Origin: Candidatus Latescibacterota bacterium
Lineage (GTDB): Bacteria; Latescibacterota; UBA2968; UBA8231
Assembly (NCBI GenBank): GCA_965248265.1
Contig: CBDFJF010000001.1
Span: 2,368,001-2,432,000, forward strand
Direction of reading: 5' to 3'
DNA: 64,000 bases
Each line of letters begins with the position of its first letter. Position 1 is the stretch's first letter. The notes below the pieces were generated by a model. The model did no database searches. It was given only the letters and a program-made list of their open reading frames with translations, and was not told where the DNA came from. This document shows positions 23,288-61,501 of this stretch, piece by piece. The position numbers and the translations under genes are program-made.

Positions 23288-23926
23288 TCAGGCAGTCTCG
23301 CGCGCGGATGCGCCGGCCTGGATAACGAGCTGTTCGAGAATCTCGTAGGGTTGCGCCCCGACCACTTCCCGACTCCCCGCCATCGCAAAGGTCGGAACAC
23401 CGGTGACTCCCTGCTGCCTGCTACGCTCCCAATCCTCGTGCACGGCGGCGCGAAAACGGCGCGTTTGAAGCGCCTCGCGACAGGCTACTGATGGCAGTCC
23501 GACTCGCTCGGCGATAGCCGCCAGATTGTCCACATCGCCAATGTTGACGTTGTCGACGAAGTATGCCCTGAAGAGTGCATCGTGGATGCGATCGCCCGTT
23601 GGCCCCTGGCCCACCGCCCACATCGCCAACTCCTGGGCCAGGAGGCTGTTATATGTCATGATACGGTCGCCGTAGGGTAGCCCCTCCACCGCCATCAGCG
23701 TCTTCATGTGAGCCTGTGCCGCCGTAATGTCGATGGGCCGGCCGGCAAACGACTGGGCCAGCGTCTGCCCTTCGGCCGGCGTCTCGGGATGCAGTGGAAA
23801 ATGGACGAAACGGACTTCGATGTGGTATGCCTGCCGCAAACGCTCAATACGCACGGTACTGAGATAGCACCACGGTCACACGTAGTCGGAATACACCTCG
23901 AGTACGGCAGGATCGGACAGGCTCAT
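23288..23926 (-). CDS. DsbA/FrnE-family thiol oxidoreductase; predicted selenoprotein (UPWC), 212 aa
   Basis: ATG 23926 overlaps the upstream stop (ATGA) and gives MSLSDPAVLEVYSDYV-TGA(23878-23876)-PWCYLST, continuing in frame into the 188-aa ORF; C-terminal GVTGVPTF and GAQP. Confidence 0.85.
23843..23863 (-). promoter_or_regulatory. Putative bacterial SECIS hairpin CUCAGUAC-CGUGC-GUAUUGAG
   Basis: 8-bp stem with one G-U pair; the loop begins 21 nt after the UGA and has G then U at positions 2-3. Confidence 0.7.
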
Positions 23927-24697
23927 TCGCCCCTCGGATCAGCCCGCAGAGATTCCAGATTGTCTTTGAGCACAGCCATCCCATAATTCAATACGCTGCC
24001 GACATTGAGCATCTGATATCCCCAGCGGATTTTCTCCTGGATCTCGGGGACCTCACCCAGTGTGGTCGCCGCCACGATGCCCGTCCCTTCCAGGCGCCGG
24101 GGTACATCCTGCATGATCTCCTGCACCTCTTTGCATCCGGTCTGCGTCGCTTTGCCGAGTGAGGCGGACAGATCCATCGGCCACCATGATGACGTCGATG
24201 CCCTCCACCTTCACGATTTCGTCCAGATTCTCGTACGCCGTGACGCTCTCCATCTGCACGATCAGCACAGTCTCTTCATTCGCCGTGACGATGACGTGCT
24301 CGAAATCCTCTCCGACGATGATCTGCCAATTCGGAGAGATTCCGCGGTTACCCAAGGGTGGATAGCGCGCGTAGTCCACCGCCCGTGCCACAGCGTCTGC
24401 GTCATCCACCTGCGGCACCATCACAGCGACGGCGCCGGCATCATAGGTCTTCTTTATCAATGCCGGATCGTTCCAGGGTACCCGCACCACTGGCGCCACG
24501 CCGCGCAGACGCATGATCGCACATGCACCCGGGAGCGCTTCGGTGCCAAAGGGCTGATGTTCGGTGTCGATCCAGATGAAATCAGGTTTCGCACTGGCGA
24601 TGGCGCCGACCAGGTGCAGTGACGGACCGACGACGACGCCCGAGCCGAGGACGATCTCTCCACTCTTGAGCTTGCCCTTCAGCGGATTCGGGTACAT
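23923..24697 (-). pseudogene. HpcH/HpaI aldolase family, frameshifted near 24180 (true pseudogene or sequence error)
   Basis: DFIWIDTEH, DAGAVAVMVPQV, YPPLGNRG, QMES. The expected GPxDLSASLG motif is split across frames at GTG G CCG ATG GAT CTG. Confidence 0.75.
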
Positions 24698-49445: not shown

Positions 49446-50486
49446 CTATTTGGATTGGGATCTGCGCGCGCGCTGATAGATGAATAAGGCAAGTCCGAAC
49501 AGCGAGAGCCCGGCCAGCTGATGCACCAGGGCGGTAGCGATCGGTACCCCCCAGGCAATGGTGGCGATGCCCAGCAAGATCTGGCCGCAACATATGGCCA
49601 CAAACAATCCCGTACAGGCCGGCAGCAGTGATGTTCCTTCGCGGCGTACCTGTCTCCACAGCAGCACTCCAAGGATCAGGATGGCGAAGGCAAACCAGCG
49701 ATGCTCAAAGTGCACGGTCAGTGCGTTCGAGAACAGATTGCTCAACCACGGGCGCAACGCCCAGAGGCCGTCCGGCACCCACTGCCCTCGGATCTGGGGA
49801 AACGTCGCGGACACATATCCGGCCTTGAGTCCAGCCATCAGCCCACCGAGAGCTATCTGCAGGCACACGGCCAGAAGCAGAGCGAAGGACAGCTTCACCG
49901 TTGAGGGAGAAGCTACCGCGGTAGCCGGGGGCAGAGCCTTCATCCCATGGTCAAGCGCGAGCCACAGGCACCCCCCAAGCAGCGCGATAGCCAGCATCAG
50001 ATGTAGGGTCAAGCGGATATGACTGACATGCGGCATGTCAACCAGACCGCTCTGCACCATCAGCCAGCCCATCAGTCCCTGGAAGGCGAAAAGCATACCG
50101 ATGCCCAGGTATGGAGCGGATCGGCGCCACGGAATGGTGCCTCGTACCAGAAACAGCAGCAACGGCAGCGCCACGCCGAGCCCTGCGAGCCGTCCAGCGA
50201 TGCGATGGATGTATTCACGGTAGTAGATGGAGCGGTACTCATCCATCGTCATACCGACGTTAATCTTCTTGTACTCGGGGGTCTTCTGGTAATCACTGAA
50301 CGTCTGGTCCCAGTCGGCCTCGCTCAGAGGCGGTACGACCCCGGTGACGACGTGCCAGTCCACCATCGACAGACCTGACCCCGTCAGACGCACCCAACCG
50401 CCGAGGGCGATCATGCCGACGACGGTGCAGCTGACGAACAGCAGCCATAGGGCCACGGATCGGTTGCGTTCGAATGTGGGTTCCAA
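49446..50486 (-). CDS. ctaA: Heme A synthase (COX15/CtaA type)
   Basis: GGWVRLTGSGLSM, EYIHR, GWLMVQSGL, RLTLHL, HFEHR, VHQ; start placed at TTG 50486. Confidence 0.9.
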   Translation of the reverse strand: MEPTFERNRSVALWLLFVSCTVVGMIALGGWVRLTGSGLSMVDWHVVTGVVPPLSEADWDQTFSDYQKTPEYKKINVGMTMDEYRSIYYREYIHRIAGRLAGLGVALPLLLFLVRGTIPWRRSAPYLGIGMLFAFQGLMGWLMVQSGLVDMPHVSHIRLTLHLMLAIALLGGCLWLALDHGMKALPPATAVASPSTVKLSFALLLAVCLQIALGGLMAGLKAGYVSATFPQIRGQWVPDGLWALRPWLSNLFSNALTVHFEHRWFAFAILILGVLLWRQVRREGTSLLPACTGLFVAICCGQILLGIATIAWGVPIATALVHQLAGLSLFGLALFIYQRARRSQSK

Positions 50487-50661: not shown

Positions 50662-53454
50662 GTGAGCGCAGCGATTTCATCGTCTGAGACTCGCCATTTT
50701 GCGGGCATGGTTGTTGTTGCGGCACTCTTGTTTTGTTTGTCTCTGGGCCACCGAGCCGTGGCCGATGCGAGACAGGTGGACCAGGAACGGGTCGAGCAGG
50801 TCGAAGACTGGACTGAGTCCCTGGCCAACCAGCTGCATGATCTTTCCCTCGCCGTGCGAAACCGTAATGCCGCGGCGCTGGCCGGCCATTTCAGCGAGAA
50901 CCTCACAGCGACCCCCTGGCCGTCGGTTGGAGGAAGCCGCGTGCCGGCGATCAAGTGGATCGCGCAAGTCGATTCGCCCTGGCCCCGGGAAGTCACGGGT
51001 ACCGACGGCTTCCTCAACAGCTGGCATGTCTACCTCGACGGACTCGGGGGGATCGAGGACGTCCGTTTCCAGGTCAAGCAGGCCCATTTCCAACCTGGGT
51101 TGGAGGTCCGTGCCGATGCTTCCATCTATTTCTCCATCGTCGGTCGCACCGATGACGGCGAGCGCATCTGGATTGAAGCCAAAGCGCACCTGAACGCCGT
51201 CCTCCCAGAGGACAACTGGTCGATAGAGGAGTTCACCTTCTCATCCTTCCACGCCCGCGTGGCATTGACCGACTTGTTCAGTGAAGTGTCCGTACCCGCG
51301 GGTGTCTACCATGAATTGCCGCTGTTCGGCTCTGCTGGCAATCCCGGTTTCGTCGCCCATGGCATAGCCGTCGCCGACGTCGACGGTGACGGCTTGCTGG
51401 ACGCCTTCACCACCAGCCAGGGGCAGAACTTCCTCTACATGAATCTGGGTGACGGTCGTTTTGAGAATCGCGCCCGCGCCGTCGGCCTCGCCATCACCCT
51501 CAACGCCTCCGGAGCGTTGTTCGTCGATCACGACAACGACGGTGACAGCGATCTGTTCCTGGCTGCACCGGGAGACCAGATGCTGTTCGAGAATAGGCTG
51601 GTACCGGACGGCGCGCTCGGCTTCGTCGATGCCTCGGCCAAGGCCGGCGTCGACCTGCCAGCACAGGGATTCAGCGCCAGTGCCGCGGACATCAACGGCG
51701 ACGGCTACCCTGACATTCATGTGGCCTCCTACAATCGCTATGGTCGCGTCATGCCCAACTCCTGGTCGCGGGCCACCAACGGCACACCCAATCTGCTGTT
51801 CGTCAATCGCGGCGATGGTAGCTTCACTGAGCAAGGCGCCGCCTGGGGAGTGGCGGATCGCCGTTGGTCCTACGCCGCCCACTTCGTCGACCTCAACCAG
51901 GACGGCCGTCAGGATCTCTACCTGGCCAACGACTTTGGCGAGAACGCCCTCTACCTCAACCGAGGAGATCACTTCGAGGATGCCGCCACCGCCGCCGGCA
52001 TGCTGGATCCTGGCAACGGCATGGGTGTCTCCGTTGGCGATTTTGACAACGACGGACTACTGGACCTGCACGTGACCAACATGTCGTCGACAGCCGGCAA
52101 CCGGATCCTCAAACGCTTGTTCCCAGACCGCGCCGTTCAACTCGATCAGACTCGTGTCCTCAACAAGCTGGCTGCCGGCAACAGTGTCTTTCGCAATCTG
52201 GGTGGGGGTCACTTTGAGGATGTGAGCGCCGACCTGGGGCCGTTCTCGGGCGGTTGGGCCTGGGGCGGGGGCTTCGTCGACTTCGACAATGACGGCTGGC
52301 TGGACATTCACAGTCCCAACGGCTTCGTCTCGGGTAAATCGCTCAAGGACACGTGAAGCCTGTTCTGGCGCCACGTGCTGGCGTCGTCAGTTGAACTGGA
52401 AGCTGCCGGCAACCCGGAGTACCAGAATGACCACATGGCCAGGATCCTGGAGGATGGCTTCTCGTTCAGCGGGTTCGAACGAGACAAGCTCTATCTCAAC
52501 GACCGTGGCAACCGGTTCGTCGACATCTCAGGCCTTTCTGGGGTAGACGCGGTTAGCGACGGGCGCGGCGCGGCCTATGCTGATTTCGACAACGACGGCG
52601 ACAGCGACATCTTCCTGACCAGCCTGCAGGGACAGGCCCACCATCTGTTCCGCAACGATGTCGGTCAGCACCGTGGTTTCCTGCGGGTCACCCTGGACGG
52701 TCGCGACAGCGGGCACGACGCCTATGGTGCGCAGGTGCGGGTAAAGACTTCACAGGGAGTGCTCGCACGCATCAAGGCCGGCGGCAGTGGCTTCGTCTCG
52801 CAGAGCGATCCGAGATTGCTGTTCGGTCTCGGCGATGACGAGAGCGCCCAGTGGCTGGAGGTGCACTGGCCATCCGGCCTCACGCAACGATTCGGAGCGG
52901 TTGCGGCCGGTTCGTCGGTTCTGGTCCGAGAAGGCGCCGCACTCGAATACCTGCAGGAGCGCCGTTTTTCGCTGCCCGACCCGCTGGCTGCGGATGCGCT
53001 GGTTCATCAGGCTCTCGGACCACAACCTGGGGAACCGTTCCCGTCACTGACGCTCACCGACCTGCAGGGCACCAAGCTGGAATTGAGCGACCTGTCCCCT
53101 TCCTCCGGCCGGCCCCTCGTCGTCAACCTGTGGGCGACATGGTGTGTCCCCTGCCGTGTAGAGATGCCGCAGTTGGAGAAGCTCTACCCCAAGCTACAGG
53201 CCGCCGGGGTGGACCTGATCGGCATCAGCGTCGATTTCGCAGAAACTCGACGCAAGATCCCGTCTTATCTGAAGCGAATCGGCATCTCCTACCCCTCCTA
53301 TACCACCGACGAGAGCGGCCTCGAGCTGCTTTACTCTGGTGATCGACTGGTCGTTCCCATCACCTTCATACTCGATTCAGATTTTCGCGTTGACGAAATT
53401 CTAAGTGGCTGGAACGCTAAATCCGAAGCCCGCCTCCACGGCTTGCTCGAATAG
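50662..53454 (+). CDS. Secreted FG-GAP repeat/ASPIC-UnbV (CRTAC1-like) protein with a C-terminal TlpA-type thioredoxin; in-frame TGA at codon 565 (candidate selenocysteine), ~930 aa
   Basis: The two track ORFs (50662-52356 and 52375-53454) share a frame and are separated only by TGA 52354-52356 (KDT-*-SLFWRHV). DxDxDG repeats continue on both sides. LLFGLG...VHWPSG marks ASPIC/UnbV; WATWCVPC marks thioredoxin. Confidence 0.8.
52367..52385 (+). promoter_or_regulatory. Putative bacterial SECIS hairpin GGCGCCA-CGUGC-UGGCGUC
   Basis: 7-bp stem with one G-U pair; the loop begins 18 nt after the UGA and is identical to the loop behind the DsbA/FrnE UGA. Confidence 0.65.
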
Positions 53455-53549: not shown

Positions 53550-56500
53550 TCAGGCGGTCGCAGCTGCATCAGTCTCCCCTGCAAACCATTTGTAGAGCGC
53601 CGGCAGCACCAACAGGGTCAACATCGTCGAAGTCACCAGTCCACCAATAACCACCGTAGCTAGCGGACGCTGGACCTCCGAGCCCACGCCAGTGGCGAGC
53701 AGCAGCGGAATCAACCCCAGACTGGCCACCAGCGCCGTCATCAGTACCGGCCGCAACCTCCGCTCGGCCCCCCTAGCTGCCGCCTCCTCCAAGCCGAGAC
53801 CCTCGCCGCGCAGCTGGTTGATGTAAGACACCAGGACCACTCCATTGAGGACGGCCACTCCAAACAGCGCGATAAAACCAACGGAGGCCGGCACCGACAG
53901 GTTTTGCCCACTCAGCCAGAGCGCCACGATACCGCCCACCAGCGCCAGCGGGATGTTCAACAGAATGAGCGCGGCGTTCTTGAGTGAGTTGAAACTGGCG
54001 AACAGCAGCAGGAAGAGGGCAAACAGAGTTAACGGAACAACCACGGCCAATCTCTTGTTAGCTTCCTGCTGCAACCGAAACTGACCACCCCAGGTCACCA
54101 GATAACCCGGCGGCAGATTGACTCCCTCGTCGATGGCTCCGCGGGCTTCATCCACAAAACTGCCAATGTCGCGGTCCGTGACGTTGCACTGGATCGTGAT
54201 GAAGCGCTGACCCTTCTCGCGGGTGATCTGTCGAGGCCCGACCACTTCTTCGATGCGAGCCAACTGCACAAGCGGCACCTGGACCCCCTCCGGCGATTGT
54301 ACCAGCAGTTGGGCGATGGCCTCAGGTGTGTCGCGGTATTCGGGTGCGAAGCGCACTATAATGTCAAAGCGACGGATCCCCTCGAATACCTGACCGACCG
54401 TTTCACCACCCACAGCCGCACGAATCACGTGTTGAACGTCGGCGACATTGATGCCGTAGCGGGCTATCGCCTGACGGTCGATTCGGATCAGCAGTTGGGG
54501 CGTGCCGCTGACCTGATCGACCTGGACGTCGGCGGCTCCGGCCACCGTGCCCACGACCCGGGCGATCTCGTCGGCCTTCTCCTTGAGCACATCGAGATCG
54601 TCGCCAAAGAGCTTGATGGCCAGTTCGGCGCGTACCCCTTCCAGCAGCTCGTCAACGGCCATGGCGATGGGTTGGGTGAAACTCGTCGAAGCACCCGGGA
54701 TGTCGCCGAGCTCATCGCGAATGACGTGCTGCAGCTCTTCCTGTGTTTCGGCCGCACGCCACTCCTCCTTCGGTTTGAGCAGGATGTACATCTCGGCACT
54801 GTTGATCGGATCGGTATGCGCCCCAACCTCACCTCGGCCTATGCGCGAGACCACCCCTGTCACTTCGGCAATCCGCATGATTCGCTGTTCGACCAGCAGA
54901 GTGAGGCGAGTGCTCTCCGTCAGCGAGATGGACGGAGCCATCGTCAGGCGCAGCACTAGGGTCCCCTCCTGTAGTGCTGGAGTAAACTCCGATCCCAGGC
55001 GCGGAAAGAGAACAGCTCCCAGTACGACGAGGCTGGCGGCAAGACCCAAAGCCCGTGATCGATGAGCGACAAAGTGACGGAGTAGAGGTCTATACAGGGA
55101 TAGTACCCACTGAACGATGAGGCCCTCCCCTGCATCCACGCCCTCTTCTGTCCGGCGCTCGGGCGCCGACTGGCGCTTGGGCACGCGCAACAGCAAATAG
55201 GATAGCACCGGGGCCGCGAACAGTGCGAAGATCAGGGATCCCATCATCGCCATCGCCACCGTGTAGGCCAGAGGCCGAAAAGTCTTCCCCTCCACACCCT
55301 CGAGAGTGAACAGCGGCAGGAAAACCATGATGATGATGATGATGGCGAAGGCGATCGGCCTTCCGACTTCGACGCATGCCGCCGTTACCGTTTCGAGGCG
55401 CGATTGTGCGCTTGAACTCGCCCGCAGCATGCGATCGACGTTTTCGACGATGACGATAGTACCATCCACCATCATCCCGATGGCGATGGCCAATCCGCCC
55501 AGCGACATGAGGTTGGCCGACAGGCCGAAATAGTGCATGCCGAGCGTCGCGAAGAACAGGGAGAACGGGATGGCCAGCGCTACAACCACACTGGGGCGCA
55601 AGCTGCCCATGAACACCAGCAATACCAGCGTTACCAGGACGATGCCTTCGACCAGAGCATCCATCACGGTGGCTACACAGGCCGCAACAAGGGTTTTCTG
55701 CTCATAGTAAGGGACCAACCGGATCCCTTCAGGCAAGATGCGGTTGATCTCCACCATCTTCGCCTCGACTCGCTCGATCACCGTGGACGAATTGGCTCCC
55801 AAGAGCTTGACTACCATGCCGGCAACTACCTCACCAACACCGTCCCGCGTCTGCACACCGCGACGAGTCGCCCCGCCAATGCGCACTTCAGCCAGCTGGT
55901 TCAGAAAAATTGGTGTACCGTCGTTGGCTTTGACGACAATGCTCTGGATGTCCTCGATCGTCGACGCCAGACCTACCGAACGCACGACGTATTCCTCGGC
56001 GTCTTTCTCGATGAACTGAGCGCCAACGTTGAGGTTGTTGGCCTCGATGCGCTCGATAACTTCCTCAAGCGTGATCCCGTAGCGCAGCAATGAATTCGGA
56101 TCGACGACAACGTGGTACTGTCTTTCGTGACCGCCGATACCCAGCACCTCGGTCACACCTGGCACGGTCTGCAGGTGAAATTTGACCAGCCAGTCCTGAA
56201 TCGTGCGCAGCTCCTCGAGACTGCGCGAACCCGTTTCATCTTCCAGGTAATAGAACAGGATCAGTCCCATCCCGGTGGCAATAGGACCCATTGCTGGTTC
56301 GCCAAAGCCTTCCGGAATCTGCTCGCGAGCCTCCTGCAGGCGCTCGTTGACCAACTGGCGGGCGAAGTAGATATCCACCCCATCTTCGAAATAGATGTTG
56401 ACTACTGAGAGGCCAAAATTGGACACGGAGCGGACGTTCTCGATTCCCGGCAGACCGTTCATCACGGTCTCAATAGGATACGTTACGTAGGTCTCGATCT

Positions 56501-56678
56501 CCTCTGGTGCCAGGCCCTCGGTGACGGTAAACACTTGAACCAGGTTTGGTGAAACGTCCGGAAAAGCGTCAACCGGCAACTGGCGGGAGCTGTACACCCC
56601 CCCACCGATAACGGCAAGGCCGAGGACCAGCATCAGTAAGCGATTCCTTAGCGACAGATGTATAATGTGCTCTATCAC
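53550..56678 (-). CDS. czcA: CusA/CzcA family heavy-metal efflux RND transporter
   Basis: LPVDAFPD, ANLMSLGG, MVDGTIVIVEN, EGKTFRPLA, GVAVLNG, RLRPVLMTA; GTG 56678 follows GGGAGG. Confidence 0.9.
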   Translation of the reverse strand: MIEHIIHLSLRNRLLMLVLGLAVIGGGVYSSRQLPVDAFPDVSPNLVQVFTVTEGLAPEEIETYVTYPIETVMNGLPGIENVRSVSNFGLSVVNIYFEDGVDIYFARQLVNERLQEAREQIPEGFGEPAMGPIATGMGLILFYYLEDETGSRSLEELRTIQDWLVKFHLQTVPGVTEVLGIGGHERQYHVVVDPNSLLRYGITLEEVIERIEANNLNVGAQFIEKDAEEYVVRSVGLASTIEDIQSIVVKANDGTPIFLNQLAEVRIGGATRRGVQTRDGVGEVVAGMVVKLLGANSSTVIERVEAKMVEINRILPEGIRLVPYYEQKTLVAACVATVMDALVEGIVLVTLVLLVFMGSLRPSVVVALAIPFSLFFATLGMHYFGLSANLMSLGGLAIAIGMMVDGTIVIVENVDRMLRASSSAQSRLETVTAACVEVGRPIAFAIIIIIMVFLPLFTLEGVEGKTFRPLAYTVAMAMMGSLIFALFAAPVLSYLLLRVPKRQSAPERRTEEGVDAGEGLIVQWVLSLYRPLLRHFVAHRSRALGLAASLVVLGAVLFPRLGSEFTPALQEGTLVLRLTMAPSISLTESTRLTLLVEQRIMRIAEVTGVVSRIGRGEVGAHTDPINSAEMYILLKPKEEWRAAETQEELQHVIRDELGDIPGASTSFTQPIAMAVDELLEGVRAELAIKLFGDDLDVLKEKADEIARVVGTVAGAADVQVDQVSGTPQLLIRIDRQAIARYGINVADVQHVIRAAVGGETVGQVFEGIRRFDIIVRFAPEYRDTPEAIAQLLVQSPEGVQVPLVQLARIEEVVGPRQITREKGQRFITIQCNVTDRDIGSFVDEARGAIDEGVNLPPGYLVTWGGQFRLQQEANKRLAVVVPLTLFALFLLLFASFNSLKNAALILLNIPLALVGGIVALWLSGQNLSVPASVGFIALFGVAVLNGVVLVSYINQLRGEGLGLEEAAARGAERRLRPVLMTALVASLGLIPLLLATGVGSEVQRPLATVVIGGLVTSTMLTLLVLPALYKWFAGETDAAATA

Positions 56679-56699
56679 GAATTGTCCTCCCACCTGCCG

Positions 56700-57899
56700 T
56701 TAGTGGCCATGGCCATCGCCAAAATCGCCTTTGGACAGTTGGGCCTTCAACGTGAAGGCGCCATCCGCGACAAAACGCTGGCCCGGCCGCAACCCGGCGA
56801 GGACCTCCACGTGGGTCTGGTTGGTGCGGCCGATGCTGATAGGGTGCGGCTCGAGTCCCGCCGGCGTTTCGACAAACACCACCACCACGTCTTCCATCGT
56901 CTGCATGGCAGACCTTGGGATCGACAGCGGCACTTCGATCCGGTCGACCTCGATCTGGGCGGTGACGAACGAACCCGGTCGCCAGAGACCGTCGAGATTG
57001 CCCAGGACGATGCGCACCGAGGCGGTTCGTGTCGCCTCCTCGACGATGGGGCTGATGTATTCGATGCTCCCTGTTGCTTCTCCTCCACCGGGTCCGCCGC
57101 TGACGTGGACGGATTGGCCGACATGGAGGAAGGGTAGATCCTTCTGATACGCCGTAAGCTCCACCCAGACTGATCGCAGATCAACGATGACGAAAGCTTC
57201 CGTTTCGTCCCTGAGCATTTCTCCCTGGGCGATGTGTTTTTTTATGATCGTACCGGCAAACGGGGCAGCCATCTCATAGCGGGTAAAGAGCGCGTCGTCG
57301 TCGAAGGACAGGTTGGCCAGGTACTCGTGCGTGAAACCGAGGGCATGCAGTTTTTGTTCGGCCACCCGCTGTTCGATGCGGGCCTCCACCAGTCCCTTTT
57401 GTGCCTCCAGGTACATCCGTTCTGAGGAGATGCTCTGTCGCCACAGCTTTTCCTCACGGGCAAAGGTTGCTTTCGCCAGCGCCAAGCGTTCCACGGCTAC
57501 CAGGTAGGTCGACTTCAACTCGGAGAGTTCGCGGCTCTGGAGTACGGCAAGAACCTGGTTTTCATGGACTTGATCACCAACGTTGGCCAGCACCCGTTGC
57601 GCCACACCGGACACACGGGGGACCAGATGAGCCAGGCGGTCTGGATTCACCCGGATCTCTCCCGGCAGACTCACGTGCACTCCCAACACTCCAGGGCCGG
57701 CCGTCATCAACCGCACACCGAACTCCTCCTGCTCGGCCGCACTCATACGGACGACCATCTCGTCTTCATGCTCGTCGTGCTCGCCAGCATGGACATCCCC
57801 GTTGTGCGCATCCTCAGCGGCCGCTACTCCAAGCGGCCCCGTCGCCAGCAACCCGGTCGCCAACACCAAGACGTTCATCGTCATCAGTCTTCTCAACAT
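56700..57899 (-). CDS. czcB: CzcB-type RND periplasmic adaptor with His-rich termini
   Basis: Signal peptide, HNGDVHAGEHDEH, APFAGTI, TRT, C-terminal GHGH. Confidence 0.85.
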   Translation of the reverse strand: MLRRLMTMNVLVLATGLLATGPLGVAAAEDAHNGDVHAGEHDEHEDEMVVRMSAAEQEEFGVRLMTAGPGVLGVHVSLPGEIRVNPDRLAHLVPRVSGVAQRVLANVGDQVHENQVLAVLQSRELSELKSTYLVAVERLALAKATFAREEKLWRQSISSERMYLEAQKGLVEARIEQRVAEQKLHALGFTHEYLANLSFDDDALFTRYEMAAPFAGTIIKKHIAQGEMLRDETEAFVIVDLRSVWVELTAYQKDLPFLHVGQSVHVSGGPGGGEATGSIEYISPIVEEATRTASVRIVLGNLDGLWRPGSFVTAQIEVDRIEVPLSIPRSAMQTMEDVVVVFVETPAGLEPHPISIGRTNQTHVEVLAGLRPGQRFVADGAFTLKAQLSKGDFGDGHGH

Positions 57900-57900
57900 T

Positions 57901-59160
57901 TCAGTTCTCCAGACCGTCTGTCGTTATCGCTTTTCCAACCGCCCTTTCCAGATCTGCCACGGCAACTCGATGGTTGAATAGTGCTTCGGCGTATTCTTGC
58001 CTGACCGCGGTAAGCGTCCTCTGTGCTTCCAGTCGCTCCAGGTAGGTCACCTTACCCTCCGCATAACTCTGGCTGGCTACTTCGAAGGTGCGCTCTGCCT
58101 CGTGAATGATCCGGCTGTTGTACAGGCGCACCTGTGCGGCGGAAGTCTGCAGGTGCAGGAAAGCGCGCTCTACTTCGAACAAGACCCGATTCTGGATGAC
58201 CTCCAGCTCGGCCTCCGCCTGTCCCACCGAAGCCGTGGCCTCGGCCAGTTGACCTCGTTGCCGGGCAGCTGCCCACAATGGAAGCTCCAGCGACAAACCC
58301 ACGCGCCAAAAATCGTCTTTGCCGGCCGGATCCTGAACGGTTTGGCGGAACAGCCCTACGGTGACGTCGGGTACGAAAGCAGCTTTGGCCAGCGCCCGTT
58401 CACTTTGAGCGCTCTGCAATACCCATTCACCACCGAGAACGTCCGGACGGTGCTCGATCGCCGTTTGCTGGAGAGGCTCGAGTTCGAACTCAACCGCTTG
58501 ATATTCCAGTTCCCCTTCGATCTCCGCACTGGTTCCGCGCTGGCTTGCCAACAGCGTATTTAGTTCGGCCCCGAACACGGCGAGTTCGTTGGTTGCATTG
58601 GTAACGCGATTGGCGGCACGTCCAGCTTCCACTTCGGCGCGCAGCACCTCGAGTTGCGGCACATCACCCGCCTCCAGGCGCAGCTGCGCCTTGCGCAGGA
58701 AATCCTGGGCCAGGCGCAGATCCTGCTGGATGTAATCGAGTTTTTTCGATCCGAACAGCACACGATCGTAGGCCACCTTGACGCGGGTGCTGATGTCGAG
58801 GCGAGTCATCTCATACGCGCCCATGCGCACAGCCTCGGCAGCCTGTCGAGCTGCCGTACTCCGACCCCGCCATTTCAGTGGCGACTCGATCTGCTGTGTC
58901 ACCCCGAAGGCCCGCTCGCCGAAATCGTCGAGGCGGGTCATCCCCGGCATCTCCTCGTATTCCAATTTCAGTTCAGGATCAGGTATTGCGCGTGCCTGAG
59001 TCGAACGCGCCCGCGCAGCCTCCCACGCCTTCTGTCCCGCGATTACTTCGGGGTTGGCTTGCAGAGCTCTATCAATTGCCTCTTGTCGTGTCAGAGCATC
59101 TATTGTGCTGGCGAACGGGCCACCGAACGCCAGAGCGACGATGACGTACCTGGAGTACAT
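57901..59160 (-). CDS. czcC: TolC family outer membrane factor (CzcC-like)
   Basis: AIDRALQANPE, PDPEL, two OEP-type repeats, YAEGKVTYLE; ATG 59160 follows GGGAGG. Confidence 0.82.
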   Translation of the reverse strand: MYSRYVIVALAFGGPFASTIDALTRQEAIDRALQANPEVIAGQKAWEAARARSTQARAIPDPELKLEYEEMPGMTRLDDFGERAFGVTQQIESPLKWRGRSTAARQAAEAVRMGAYEMTRLDISTRVKVAYDRVLFGSKKLDYIQQDLRLAQDFLRKAQLRLEAGDVPQLEVLRAEVEAGRAANRVTNATNELAVFGAELNTLLASQRGTSAEIEGELEYQAVEFELEPLQQTAIEHRPDVLGGEWVLQSAQSERALAKAAFVPDVTVGLFRQTVQDPAGKDDFWRVGLSLELPLWAAARQRGQLAEATASVGQAEAELEVIQNRVLFEVERAFLHLQTSAAQVRLYNSRIIHEAERTFEVASQSYAEGKVTYLERLEAQRTLTAVRQEYAEALFNHRVAVADLERAVGKAITTDGLEN

Positions 59161-59260
59161 GTATTCCTCCCGATTCATGTTACCGTAGAGTCGTGTGATG
59201 GAACGTACCATGCCGGTTTCGACAGCTGTCGAGACGCCACAGAAACCGATGGGGGTTGAT

Positions 59261-59905: not shown

Positions 59906-60481
59906 ATGCAGACCCGGAAACTGGGCGACACCAGCGTCGAAGTTTCGATCGTCGGAATCGGCGGCTGGCAGATGGGAGGTCCGGACACCCCGGACGGCAA
60001 CGGGCACAGCGAGGCCGTTATCGGACGAGCTATGGTGGGCCGGCGCGACCGCTGGGTCATCGCTACTAAGGGAGGCCGAGTCAAGAATCCGGAGAAACGG
60101 GGCGAGTACAAGGATTACTCCGCTTCCCACATCCGCGATGCTTGTGAGGCAAGCCTCGGACGGCTCGGCACCGACTACATCGATTTCTATCAACTACATG
60201 GTGATCTCCCCGACGAGGCCCTGGTTGAGGAGCATGCTGGGGGTCTGAATCTCTCCTTTCTATGGGAGGGCACGGGTAGGACACCGGCACAGGCTGCGCT
60301 GCGTTTCGTTGTGGACCAACCCGGCGTGACGGCTGCCATTCCCGGGACCAAGAAGATGGAGCATCTGGAAGACAACGTCGGTGCCACCGATGTCGCCCCG
60401 CTGACAGCAGAAGAGCTGCAGCGCGTGGAGGAAGTTGCCACCGCATTGGCTGAGAAACGCACTCACCAGCAGCGCCGCTAG
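59906..60481 (+). pseudogene. Internally deleted aldo/keto reductase
   Basis: AKR N-terminus, ATKGG, SLGRLGTDYIDFYQLH and AQAALRF...IPG are present; the DTAxxYG segment and the central barrel part are missing; only 191 aa. Confidence 0.7.
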
Positions 60482-60535
60482 TTGATTGTTGTTTTCAACC
60501 TGACATGCCGCTTTAACAATATCGAAAGGCAGATC

Positions 60536-61501
60536 ATGAGTTCGATCTTGGAGCAACGTCCCTTCGGTAACACCGACTCCACGACCACAGCTCTCGGCCT
60601 GGGATGCGGCCACATCGCCAAGCACTCCTTCGCCACCGGCGTCGACACCATTCACCGGGCTCTCGAGCTCGGTGTGCGCTATTTCGATACGGCACCGTTC
60701 TACGGACGTGGGATGTCACAGGCCGTGCTCGGAGAGGCATTGCAGAATCGCACAGAAGAGTATTTGCTGGCAACGAAAGTGGGACGACTGCGCACACCAA
60801 AGCATTTCCGTTCGGCCGACGCGATACGGGCACAGCTGGACGAAAACCTGCGGCTGCTGCGTCGTCCAGATGTCGATGTGCTCCAAATTCACGAAGCGGA
60901 TTGGCATGCGTGGTGGTCCGACGTTCCCCGTCAAGACGAGAGCAGCAACGTCGACCACGCCATAGACTATGAATTCGATGAAGCCCCGGTTATGCGTGTG
61001 CTGCGCGAAGCCAGAGAGCAGGGCGTCTGCAAGGCGATTGGCGTCACCGGCAATTCCGCTGCCGATACCGCGTTCGTACTGCGCCATGTCGACGTCGACA
61101 CCTACCTGCTCGCTTTCAACTACAACCCCGTGGAGCGTGAGGCCCGCACCGAGTCATTCCCCCTGGCACGAGAGAAAGGCGTGGCGATGATTCTGGGAGG
61201 GGTGCTGACCCGAGGACAGCTCACTGCAAAGAGCGATGAGCTGTTCGAGTCGCCGCCCAAGTGGATGACGTCGCAAATCAGCGAGAGCCTGCGGGTCCTT
61301 TACAAGATCCACGACGACACCGGCATCTCGTTGCCGGCACTGGCGCTGAGATTCGTCCTTGCGGATCCAAGTGTCACCGTCGCCCTCATCGGCGCCGCCA
61401 CGCCTGCGGAAATCGAAGAGAACGTCGAGGCAGCTAGTGCAGGACCGCTGCCCGCAGATATTCATCAAGCTGTGGAAGACGTGGTGAAGGAGCCCGGTTA
61501 G
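60536..61501 (+). CDS. Aldo/keto reductase
   Basis: LGLGCG, FDTAPFYG, ATKVG, VDVLQIHE, LALRF, LIGA. Confidence 0.92.
   Translation: MSSILEQRPFGNTDSTTTALGLGCGHIAKHSFATGVDTIHRALELGVRYFDTAPFYGRGMSQAVLGEALQNRTEEYLLATKVGRLRTPKHFRSADAIRAQLDENLRLLRRPDVDVLQIHEADWHAWWSDVPRQDESSNVDHAIDYEFDEAPVMRVLREAREQGVCKAIGVTGNSAADTAFVLRHVDVDTYLLAFNYNPVEREARTESFPLAREKGVAMILGGVLTRGQLTAKSDELFESPPKWMTSQISESLRVLYKIHDDTGISLPALALRFVLADPSVTVALIGAATPAEIEENVEAASAGPLPADIHQAVEDVVKEPG

Follow-up and report, generated by a model that had tools for sequence, protein, structure and literature searches.

Proteins of the CRTAC1/ASPIC-UnbV type form a very large family for which we know of no demonstrated biochemical function, and to our knowledge neither selenocysteine (Sec) nor enzymatic activity has been reported for CRTAC1 proteins. 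Most catalogued selenoprotein families carry Sec inside a thioredoxin-like redox motif. Among them, exported selenoproteins of Sec-using bacteria with a TlpA/ResA-type domain hold it in the thioredoxin motif itself (UxxC, UGC). The reactive residue of thioredoxin-fold enzymes, GPx and Prx, whether Cys or Sec, usually sits at the N-terminus of a helix, and the selenenylsulfide of GPx-, Prx- and Msr-like Sec enzymes can be resolved by a CxxC thioredoxin. A 2026 review counts 119 prokaryotic selenoprotein families, and new ones are still being added (PMC13188914). Here we describe a gene that, judged from the comparison of related sequences, very probably encodes a genuine selenoprotein of a family not yet catalogued, with Sec in a CRTAC1-type beta-propeller and an ordinary CxPC thioredoxin domain at the C-terminus of the same chain.

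The gene lies at 50662-53454 on the + strand of a 64,000-nucleotide stretch of DNA (the window), taken from the genome that we call G000. Translation of the window gave a single frame of 930 codons followed by a TAG stop, with one internal stop, the TGA at 52354-52356, in the context GFVSGKSLKDT-*-SLFWRHVLAS. The list of open reading frames breaks this frame into two, 50662-52356 (564 aa) and 52375-53454 (359 aa). An earlier note, made from the window alone, had read the two as one frame broken only by this TGA, with DxDxDG repeats on both sides and a lone Sec. The translation bore this out: Pfam FG-GAP_3 matched in six stretches, DFDNDGD at residues 641-647 lies after the TGA, and the full inventory of Cys and Sec is C25, U565, C828 and C831, of which the last three are the sole such residues in the mature protein. 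The note's description of an exported protein of ~930 aa fits the studied gene but is too narrow for its relatives, as Sec forms also span 800-1535 aa.

Both halves of the gene were modelled by AlphaFold2 as a single protein (mean pLDDT 89.1, pTM 0.87) in which one propeller is built across the TGA from both sides. The predicted signal peptide (residues 1-34, 50662-50763), read by eye from the translation, shows a hydrophobic MVVVAALLFCLSLG and an AVA-DA cleavage site; it holds C25, the only Cys outside the CxPC motif, and was modelled with pLDDT below 52 and a helix at 14-27. It is followed by an alpha+beta domain (residues ~40-205, 50779-51276) in which the model has a pair of long helices and four long strands running antiparallel, and whose appearance suggests an NTF2/SnoaL-like fold; in the studied protein this domain had no Pfam match, and a precomputed PF13577 match was found in one truncated homolog (P0262). 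The FG-GAP beta-propeller (residues ~215-665, 51304-52656) matched PF13517 (FG-GAP_3, 141.4 bits) and PF01839 (FG-GAP, 65.9 bits), both over their cut-offs. Within it lies a two-helix insertion (residues 565-596, 52354-52449; helices 565-576 and 585-596 by DSSP on the model), and the putative U565, encoded by the conserved TGA, is the first residue of the first helix, in a block with pLDDT 89. The UnbV_ASPIC domain (PF07593, residues 687-752, 52720-52917) scored 62.8 bits against a cut-off of 23.4 and corresponds in the model to a beta-sandwich with strands from ~672 to 764. The chain ends in a TlpA/ResA-like thioredoxin-fold domain (53023-53451; Pfam AhpC-TSA 63 bits and Redoxin 54.4 bits, over cut-offs) with the active-site motif CVPC (residues 828-831, 53143-53154, Cys at C828 and C831), 263 residues downstream of U565.

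The FG-GAP propeller followed by a UnbV_ASPIC domain places the protein in the CRTAC1/ASPIC-UnbV family. The top PDB match of the model by Foldseek was murine CRTAC1 (9etn_A, E 2e-29, TM 0.74 normalised to the target), with which it shares core fold and domain order; compared with CRTAC1, the studied protein adds the N-terminal NTF2-like domain, Sec at the start of the helix insertion and the C-terminal TlpA-like thioredoxin. The thioredoxin domain itself matched ResA, StoA and TlpA-type thiol-disulfide oxidoreductases in Foldseek (E 1e-11 to 1e-9). It shows the mark of the TlpA/ResA/DsbE superfamily, a thioredoxin fold with CxPC on an exported protein, whereas the NCBIfam models of its named members all remained below cut-off (ResA 71.9 against 170, TlpA 70.5 against 230, DsbE 42.1 against 123 bits). 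By these scores the thioredoxin part belongs to the superfamily as a domain and is not one of those proteins. It differs from the exported selenoproteins with a TlpA/ResA-type domain in that its own motif is an ordinary CVPC and Sec lies in the propeller; NF041054 gave 31.7 bits where its cut-off asks for 300. The whole protein resembles GPx, Prx and MsrA/B that work with fused or dedicated thioredoxins (Etrx, TlpA systems) in having a lone reactive residue, Sec or Cys, where a helix begins, and a CxxC thioredoxin that might resolve a selenenylsulfide. This is a likeness of logic rather than an established homology. Here Sec sits in a beta-propeller insertion rather than in a thioredoxin or Msr fold.

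The suggestion that this is not a described selenoprotein family agrees with what we found. No NCBIfam selenoprotein model reached its cut-off on the studied protein, and a literature search covering main texts returned no published description of a CRTAC1-like propeller selenoprotein. Table 1 of the 2026 review contains no FG-GAP, ASPIC/UnbV or CRTAC1 family among its 119 entries, whereas the DsbA/FrnE-like selenoprotein encoded in the same window belongs to a listed family (DsbA-like protein form 1) whose Sec occupies the UxxC motif of a thioredoxin fold (PMC13188914).

We compared the codon at the Sec position across genomes, as the earlier note had advised. TGA was found at the same aligned column, with the frame maintained across it, in all 80 related loci from other species, which carry the labels Latescibacterota, Gemmatimonadota, Planctomycetota and Acidobacteriota; thus every close ortholog that we examined has kept it. 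Of the records retrieved for these loci, 'Acidobacteria bacterium Mor1' alone carries no MAG label. Among 81 distinct codon-aligned segments the codon was TGA in 81 and never TAA or TAG. TGA at this column is shared by orthologs at 58-77% identity in six related genomes and by a second gene copy in G000, recurs in diverged subfamilies at 32-38% identity, and was invariant in 11 aligned sequences down to 32%. In 201 genomes from the phylum of G041, 42 of the 55 matches at E <= 1e-60 contained one TGA, including all of the 26 best, and the Sec form was present in 31 of these genomes. The branch of Sec forms is abundant in Acidobacteriota, Latescibacterota, Gemmatimonadota and Planctomycetota, phyla that are common in soil and sediment. 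Amino-acid identities of 57-84% in both halves of the gene indicate purifying selection on either side of the TGA.

A SECIS-type hairpin had been proposed to start 11 nt after the TGA, with 7 bp and a CGUGC loop, and is present as described: it starts at the 11th base past the TGA, the 5' arm GGCGCCA spans 52367-52373, the loop CGUGC 52374-52378 and the 3' arm UGGCGUC 52379-52385, all on the + strand and within the coding sequence for W-R-H-V-L-A-S. The same loop had been noticed behind the UxxC codon of the DsbA/FrnE-like gene, and there we found an 8-bp stem with an identical CGUGC loop (- strand, TGA 23876-23878, motif YSDYV-U-PWCY). Folding of the single sequence is at chance level, with z-scores of -0.16 (67 nt) and -1.15 (48 nt) in a full range of -0.16 to -1.86 and 20 of 200 shuffled sequences folding as well as the hairpin region, so the significance of the hairpin rests on comparison with other sequences. 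A search of Rfam with 52250-52500 gave no match at E <= 10. RNAalifold on a gapless alignment of mixed subfamilies returned a spurious 3-bp helix only, as the classes differ in the register of their hairpins; covariation was therefore computed with a specified structure on an alignment of class A alone (classes A to D were named by us).

In this alignment of 74 rows, nt 14-20 pair with nt 26-32 and the loop begins at nt 21, with G22-U23; 89.4% of stem cells were paired, against 25-74% when the partner strand was slid. Apical loops among the homologs were CGUGC, GGUCG, CGUCG and AGUUG. Stem pair 18-28 covaried and was paired in every row (C-G in 39, U-A in 33, G-U in 2), and a fourth type, G-C, occurs in one further sequence (L171). 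Across the 81 segments the Arg codon was CGC in 42, CGT in 37 and CGG in 2, numbers equal to those of GCN (42), ACG (37) and TCG (2) at codon +9, so that the covariation goes with a change among Ala, Thr and Ser. The third base of codon +8 (Val or Leu) was G in 81 of 81 segments, compared with an entropy of 0.96-1.9 bits at neighbouring four-fold sites. Double changes were confined to one of the seven stem pairs, the count of pairs changed on both sides did not exceed that of shuffles (408 of 500 reached the observed value), and the two outer pairs were unpaired in 33 and 12 of the 74 sequences. The peptide S-x-F-W-R-x-V after Sec is conserved in homologs that lack Sec as well, which makes part of the DNA conservation here protein-level. 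Taken on the alignment, the hairpin is under RNA-level selection, and the proposed test of its conservation has come out in its favour through the covariation at pair 18-28 and the invariant synonymous G. The hairpin of the selD gene of G000, which contains a TGA of its own, has its stem in the same register and a GGUC loop at 21-24.

G000 has the machinery that a selenoprotein would need and for which the note had called: selA, selB, selD and tRNA-Sec all scored over curated cut-offs, and ARAGORN identified a tRNA-SeC with anticodon tca. Related carriers of the gene had selB over cut-off in 10 of 10 cases, carriers from other phyla in 11 of 12 (12 of 12 at E <= 1e-40), and carriers in the sample of 201 genomes in 28 of 31; the three without selB all had selA, and two of them tRNA-Sec over cut-off. 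The presence of selB in carriers hardly discriminates, since it was found in 159 of 201 and 23 of 24 sampled genomes (79-96%). We consider it almost certain, on these comparative lines of evidence, that Sec is inserted at UGA 52354-52356. SelB and Sec-tRNA(Sec) would decode the codon, directed by the hairpin from the 11th base downstream, and the product would consist of signal peptide, NTF2-like domain, CRTAC1-type FG-GAP propeller, UnbV/ASPIC domain and TlpA-like CVPC thioredoxin.

We next consider what the residue may do, which can be approached through homologs that have no stop at this position. In 51 such uninterrupted homologs, each a single polypeptide, the residue at the Sec column was N in 12, S in 10, A in 6, E and D in 5 each, R and C in 4 each, T in 2, and L, I and Q in 1 each. 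Alternation of TGA with Cys, which the note had named as a sign of Sec, does exist, in P0154 and P0155, which carry Cys and share 72% identity with L161, a Sec form; P0152, also a Cys form, is 59% identical to the Sec form L089. Such alternation is rare, with 4 Cys forms against 47 that have a non-redox residue. The wider family thus mostly has no redox residue at the column, and Sec can be lost without Cys taking its place. The fused thioredoxin follows the same division. Among 109 Sec forms with a complete 3' end, 100 had CxPC, 3 another CxxC, 4 no thioredoxin but U-x-C, and 2 (L056 and L057) no partner Cys motif; among the uninterrupted homologs, CxPC was confined to two of the four Cys forms and lacking from all 47 non-redox forms. 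These counts come from related sequences gathered by different routes and ignore phylogeny. Comparison across the homologs shows Sec to be inherited together with an intact CxPC thioredoxin. Where Sec appears to have been lost, it has mostly given way to a non-redox residue, with the CxPC thioredoxin domain absent or its motif lost, and not to Cys. A quick IQ-TREE tree (SH-aLRT support, midpoint root) provisionally nests non-Sec forms within Sec clades, which would mean multiple losses.

The note's proposal that Sec is recycled by the C-terminal WCVPC thioredoxin of the same protein gains indirect support from this co-occurrence of Sec or Cys with an intact CxPC across several clades. On these comparisons we judge it an even chance that Sec has a redox role in concert with the fused thioredoxin. 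In such a role, the protein would be an extracytoplasmic oxidoreductase in which U565, as selenol or selenolate, makes the attack; this residue would react with an oxidised substrate and then form a selenenylsulfide with its own CxPC domain, which would resolve this to a disulfide and may itself be re-reduced by a membrane electron donor of the CcdA/DsbD type. More tentatively, and somewhat short of an even chance, the whole Sec-form branch of the bacterial CRTAC1/ASPIC-UnbV proteins could be a selenium-dependent extracytoplasmic oxidoreductase, with a propeller selenol at a helix N-terminus, the fused TlpA-like CxPC domain as dedicated recycler, and selenium hard to replace. The findings suggest that a family usually taken as structural or adhesive does redox chemistry. 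If the branch is indeed such an oxidoreductase, the family would gain its first catalytic function and Sec would be seen in a new kind of fold. The family also offers a natural experiment on when Cys can or cannot replace Sec.

Sec might instead be inserted without being a catalytic centre recycled by thioredoxin, serving as a ligand for a metal or metalloid, or the UGA and its hairpin might act chiefly as a selenium-dependent switch between a 564-aa and the full-length product. The 47 of 51 uninterrupted homologs with a non-redox residue at the column would fit this, many of those residues (N, S, D, T) being of the kind favoured at helix N-caps, as would the quick tree, in which forms without Sec are nested within the Sec-bearing ones. 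So would the setting of the gene in G000, where CtaA is the divergent upstream neighbour and a CusCBA-like RND efflux system lies convergently downstream. This neighbourhood, however, was not conserved across 84 loci and gave no functional clue; the commonest neighbour was a TPR/FG-GAP paralog (18 of 84), followed by a CMD/AhpD-like protein (7). A partner Cys, in CxPC or another motif, accompanies Sec in 107 of 109 Sec forms, while CxPC is missing from all 47 non-redox forms, and the predicted structure implies that a 564-aa product would be without the final blade of the propeller. We regard a non-catalytic Sec as possible but rather unlikely, and less probable than the thioredoxin-coupled redox role.

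If a near-cognate tRNA for Trp, Cys or Arg decoded the UGA with no part played by selenium, stimulated by the hairpin, the clear selection on the full-length protein would be accounted for, and the evidence for selenium is comparative in kind. Against such readthrough speak the absence of TAA and TAG from the 81 segments, the register and loop G-U that the hairpin shares with that of selD in G000, and the occurrence of selB or selA in every carrier tested (10/10, 12/12 at E <= 1e-40 and 31/31), and we hold it to be very improbable in comparison with the insertion of Sec. Slightly more improbable still is a pair of genes, the first stopping at the UGA and the second starting at GTG 52375 or nearby. 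Gene callers and public databases do split the frame in this way, into ORFs of 545-600 aa, and codon +8 is always GTG, CTG or TTG. The earlier note had seen no convincing Shine-Dalgarno sequence before GTG 52375, and by eye we too saw nothing like GGAGG there and no signal peptide on the downstream part. We rejected the two-gene reading because the frame (in 80 of 80 loci), the propeller with its helix insertion in the predicted structure, and the single chains of the uninterrupted homologs all cross the TGA site. A pseudogene or sequencing error at 52354-52356, a reading to which one copy with several frame breaks in a related genome (L032 in G012) might lend itself, was also rejected and is barely credible, as the TGA recurs in 80 of 80 loci and in 81 distinct sequences from independent assemblies as well as in the second copy in G000, with both halves under purifying selection at 57-84% amino-acid identity.

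Set beside most other bacterial selenoprotein families, this one stands out in four points: Sec in a CRTAC1/ASPIC-UnbV propeller, a co-inherited CxPC domain, a wide spread, and genes that are stored truncated. In public databases the close orthologs appear as ORFs that end at the TGA, under the names 'VCBS repeat-containing protein' or 'hypothetical protein'. Annotation and proteomics search spaces consequently lack the full-length protein, UnbV and thioredoxin domains included. The uninterrupted relatives are named 'CRTAC1 family protein' by NCBI.

The gene at 50662-53454 of the window (+ strand) forms one 930-codon frame whose sole internal stop is the TGA at 52354-52356 (+); a plain ORF listing divides this frame into ORFs of 564 and 359 aa. 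Sequence comparison strongly supports insertion of selenocysteine (Sec) at this UGA, as residue U565, and we regard it as very probable. The earlier note had proposed tabulating the codon at position 565 across genomes. TGA stands at the same alignment column, hereafter the Sec column, in 80 of the best 80 loci from a one-genome-per-species scan that returned 437 relatives, and is invariant in 81 of 81 distinct codon-aligned segments of close orthologs (class A in our own labelling). The titles of these 80 loci include Latescibacterota, which are closest at 70-75% identity, Gemmatimonadota, Planctomycetota and many Acidobacteriota. In a six-frame search across 41 related genomes, we found a second copy in the source genome (L055, G000:C2:3041070-3043757, - strand; 77% identity) in which the TGA is retained, the hairpin is almost identical and the C-terminal motif is CAPC, and orthologs at 58-68% identity in six other genomes. 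The second copy and these orthologs contain exactly one TGA each, all at one aligned column. One ortholog in a draft genome (L032, G012:C9) keeps the TGA and hairpin in a frame broken several times by frame shifts, which may reflect either decay of this copy or faulty assembly.

More distant relatives, at 32-38% identity, also have TGA at the Sec column, within the motif EDS-U-SLFWRTVV in class B and PDG-U-[SAT]-C in class C. The same holds for long forms of 1330-1535 aa (L169 in G252, L170 in G200 and L171 in G238), which carry a CPPC or CVPC motif. Uninterrupted counterparts of these long forms have TPR repeats, the JGI name 'TPR repeat protein/peroxiredoxin' and Asn at the Sec column, several with a C-x-x-S remnant. 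We also sampled 201 genomes evenly from the phylum of genome G041. Matches at E <= 1e-60 came from 42 genomes and numbered 55, of which 42, all 26 best among them, contained one TGA. At least one TGA form was present in 31 of the matching genomes, one of them unpublished (G101), and uninterrupted forms only in 11.

The 7-bp hairpin that the earlier note had described behind the TGA is present, with arms at 52367-52373 and 52379-52385 and a CGUGC loop. On its own it folds no better than shuffled sequence (z -0.16 and -1.15), and its region has no match in Rfam. Among the 81 class A segments, the third base of codon +8 (Val/Leu), whose partner in the stem is C19, is always G, while other nearby four-fold sites show entropies of 0.96-1.9 bits. 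Arg codon +5 is CGC in 42, CGT in 37 and CGG in 2, and codon +9 follows with the same three counts as GCN (Ala), ACG (Thr) and TCG (Ser). We scored pairing in 74 distinct 48-nt rows on a structure that we specified. The columns behind codons +5 and +9 read CG in 39 rows, UA in 33 and GU in 2 and are never unpaired, so that a synonymous change accompanies a pair-keeping amino-acid change; a G-C variant (CGG...CCG) occurs in the long-form gene L171. Stem cells were paired in 89.4% of cases, against 25-74% with the 3' partner slid. Covariation is limited to one of the seven stem pairs, three pairs are invariant, pairing is frequently lost at the two outer positions, and the number of pairs with double changes was not above shuffles. 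The encoded S-x-F-W-R-x-V peptide is conserved in Sec-less homologs too. In both of the two uninterrupted homologs whose DNA was compared, with GCA (Ala) and GAC (Asp) as their Sec-column codons, the in-register hairpin is broken.

Recoding follows the usual bacterial mechanism. The machinery that the earlier note had asked about is in place in the source genome, where selD, selB, selA and tRNA-Sec all score over curated cut-offs. Its selD (L001, G000:C2:1010876-1011799) is itself a selenoprotein gene with its own TGA (KTCG-U-AAK), followed by a 7-bp stem (nt 14-20) and a GGUC loop (nt 21-24) in the same register as the window hairpin; class B shares the GGUC loop. The likeness that the note had seen to a DsbA/FrnE-like gene at about 23288-23938 (-) also holds. 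This gene places its TGA (23876-23878) in the active-site motif YSDYV-U-PWCY ahead of an 8-bp stem with the same CGUGC loop, and by motif fits the catalogued selenoprotein family 'DsbA-like protein form 1'. Among carriers, selB scored above cut-off in 10 of 10 related genomes, in 11 of 12 from other phyla (the twelfth match being a contig-end fragment) and in 28 of 31 in the G041 phylum sample, where the three without it all had selA and two had tRNA-Sec over cut-off. Since 159 of 201 and 23 of 24 sampled genomes have selB, its presence, though necessary, discriminates weakly.

Profile searching against 1.84 billion representatives, combined with a word-index search, yielded 51 uninterrupted homologs spanning the Sec column, with residues N12, S10, A6, E5, D5, R4, C4, T2, L1, I1 and Q1. 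The anticipated TGA/Cys alternation thus exists but is rare (4 of 51), a scarcity that is unusual for a selenoprotein family. Cys forms P0154 and P0155 share 72% identity with Sec form L161, and P0152 shares 59% with L089. A quick tree, midpoint-rooted and with branch support from SH-aLRT only, placed forms with S, A, Q, R or D inside the Sec group of class A, and those with S, T or E together with class B; because non-Sec forms lie among Sec groups, it provisionally suggests that Sec was lost repeatedly.

Pfam assigned the window protein FG-GAP_3 (141 bits in six stretches), FG-GAP, UnbV_ASPIC (residues 687-752) and AhpC-TSA/Redoxin (788-907). NCBIfam matches to ResA, TlpA and DsbE were below threshold, and none of its selenoprotein models matched. 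An AlphaFold2 model built from a 26-row alignment (mean pLDDT 89.1, pTM 0.87) has a putative N-terminal signal peptide, an alpha+beta domain (residues 40-205, window 50779-51276, +), a propeller assembled from sequence flanking the TGA on either side, an insertion of two helices (565-576 and 585-596) with Sec as its first residue, a beta-sandwich (672-764) and a thioredoxin fold (about 790-930). The 40-205 domain, kept across class A and without a Pfam match in the window protein, is modelled as a confident fold of helices and a long curved sheet and looks NTF2/SnoaL-like. The top PDB match was murine CRTAC1 (9etn_A, E 2e-29), followed by ResA/TlpA-type oxidoreductases for the C-terminal domain.

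Besides U565, the only Cys or Sec residues of the protein are C25, in the signal-peptide core, and C828 and C831, in WCVPC. We counted 113 distinct Sec-form genes, 109 with a complete 3' end. CxPC was present in 100 of the 109 and another CxxC in three; four of class C (L034, L035, L167 and L172; 800-910 aa) lack the thioredoxin domain and all have U-S/A/T-C, with Cys two residues past Sec; two have neither CxxC nor U-x-C. Among the 51 uninterrupted homologs CxPC occurred in two Cys forms only (P0111 and P0152) and in none of the 47 non-redox forms, three of which have CGAC, CAAC or CASC; several N-type long forms retain C-x-x-S. The co-occurrence is seen again in several clades, and since these counts come from kindred sequences gathered by different routes, they describe a pattern and do not amount to a statistical test. 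From this co-occurrence, the best evidence here, we infer that Sec and the fused thioredoxin may work together. A redox role in which U565 would act with the CxPC domain is the best-supported mechanism, to which we give about an even chance.

The locus is very likely a genuine selenoprotein gene of a family not yet catalogued. Its product is by fold a member of the CRTAC1/ASPIC-UnbV family, with a TlpA-superfamily domain. The catalogued TlpA-type selenoproteins have their Sec within the thioredoxin motif, and this protein is not among them. In a 2026 review (PMC13188914), Table 1, as far as consulted, lists 119 prokaryotic selenoprotein families and no FG-GAP, ASPIC/UnbV or CRTAC1 entry. The words FG-GAP, ASPIC, CRTAC1, VCBS, propeller and Planctomycet are absent from the main texts of that review, BSepDB (PMC13326102) and deep-Sep (PMC12013277). 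At the level of titles and abstracts, no selenoprotein or selenocysteine paper was tied to FG-GAP, ASPIC, UnbV, CRTAC1 or VCBS. The family is widespread, and the literature so covered held no description of it; public entries for close orthologs are 545-600-aa ORFs ending at the TGA, named 'VCBS repeat-containing protein' or 'hypothetical protein'.

The gene is flanked by a divergent COX15/CtaA heme A synthase gene (49446-50480, -) and, on its convergent side, by a three-gene RND efflux system (53550-59211, -) of AcrB-family pump, CusB/HlyD-type adaptor and outer-membrane factor, an arrangement not conserved among other carriers. Further on, adjoining ORFs at 59906-60481 and 60482-61501 (+) each match the aldo/keto reductase family, with the first aligning to only part of the profile; they could represent a tandem pair of which one copy is truncated.
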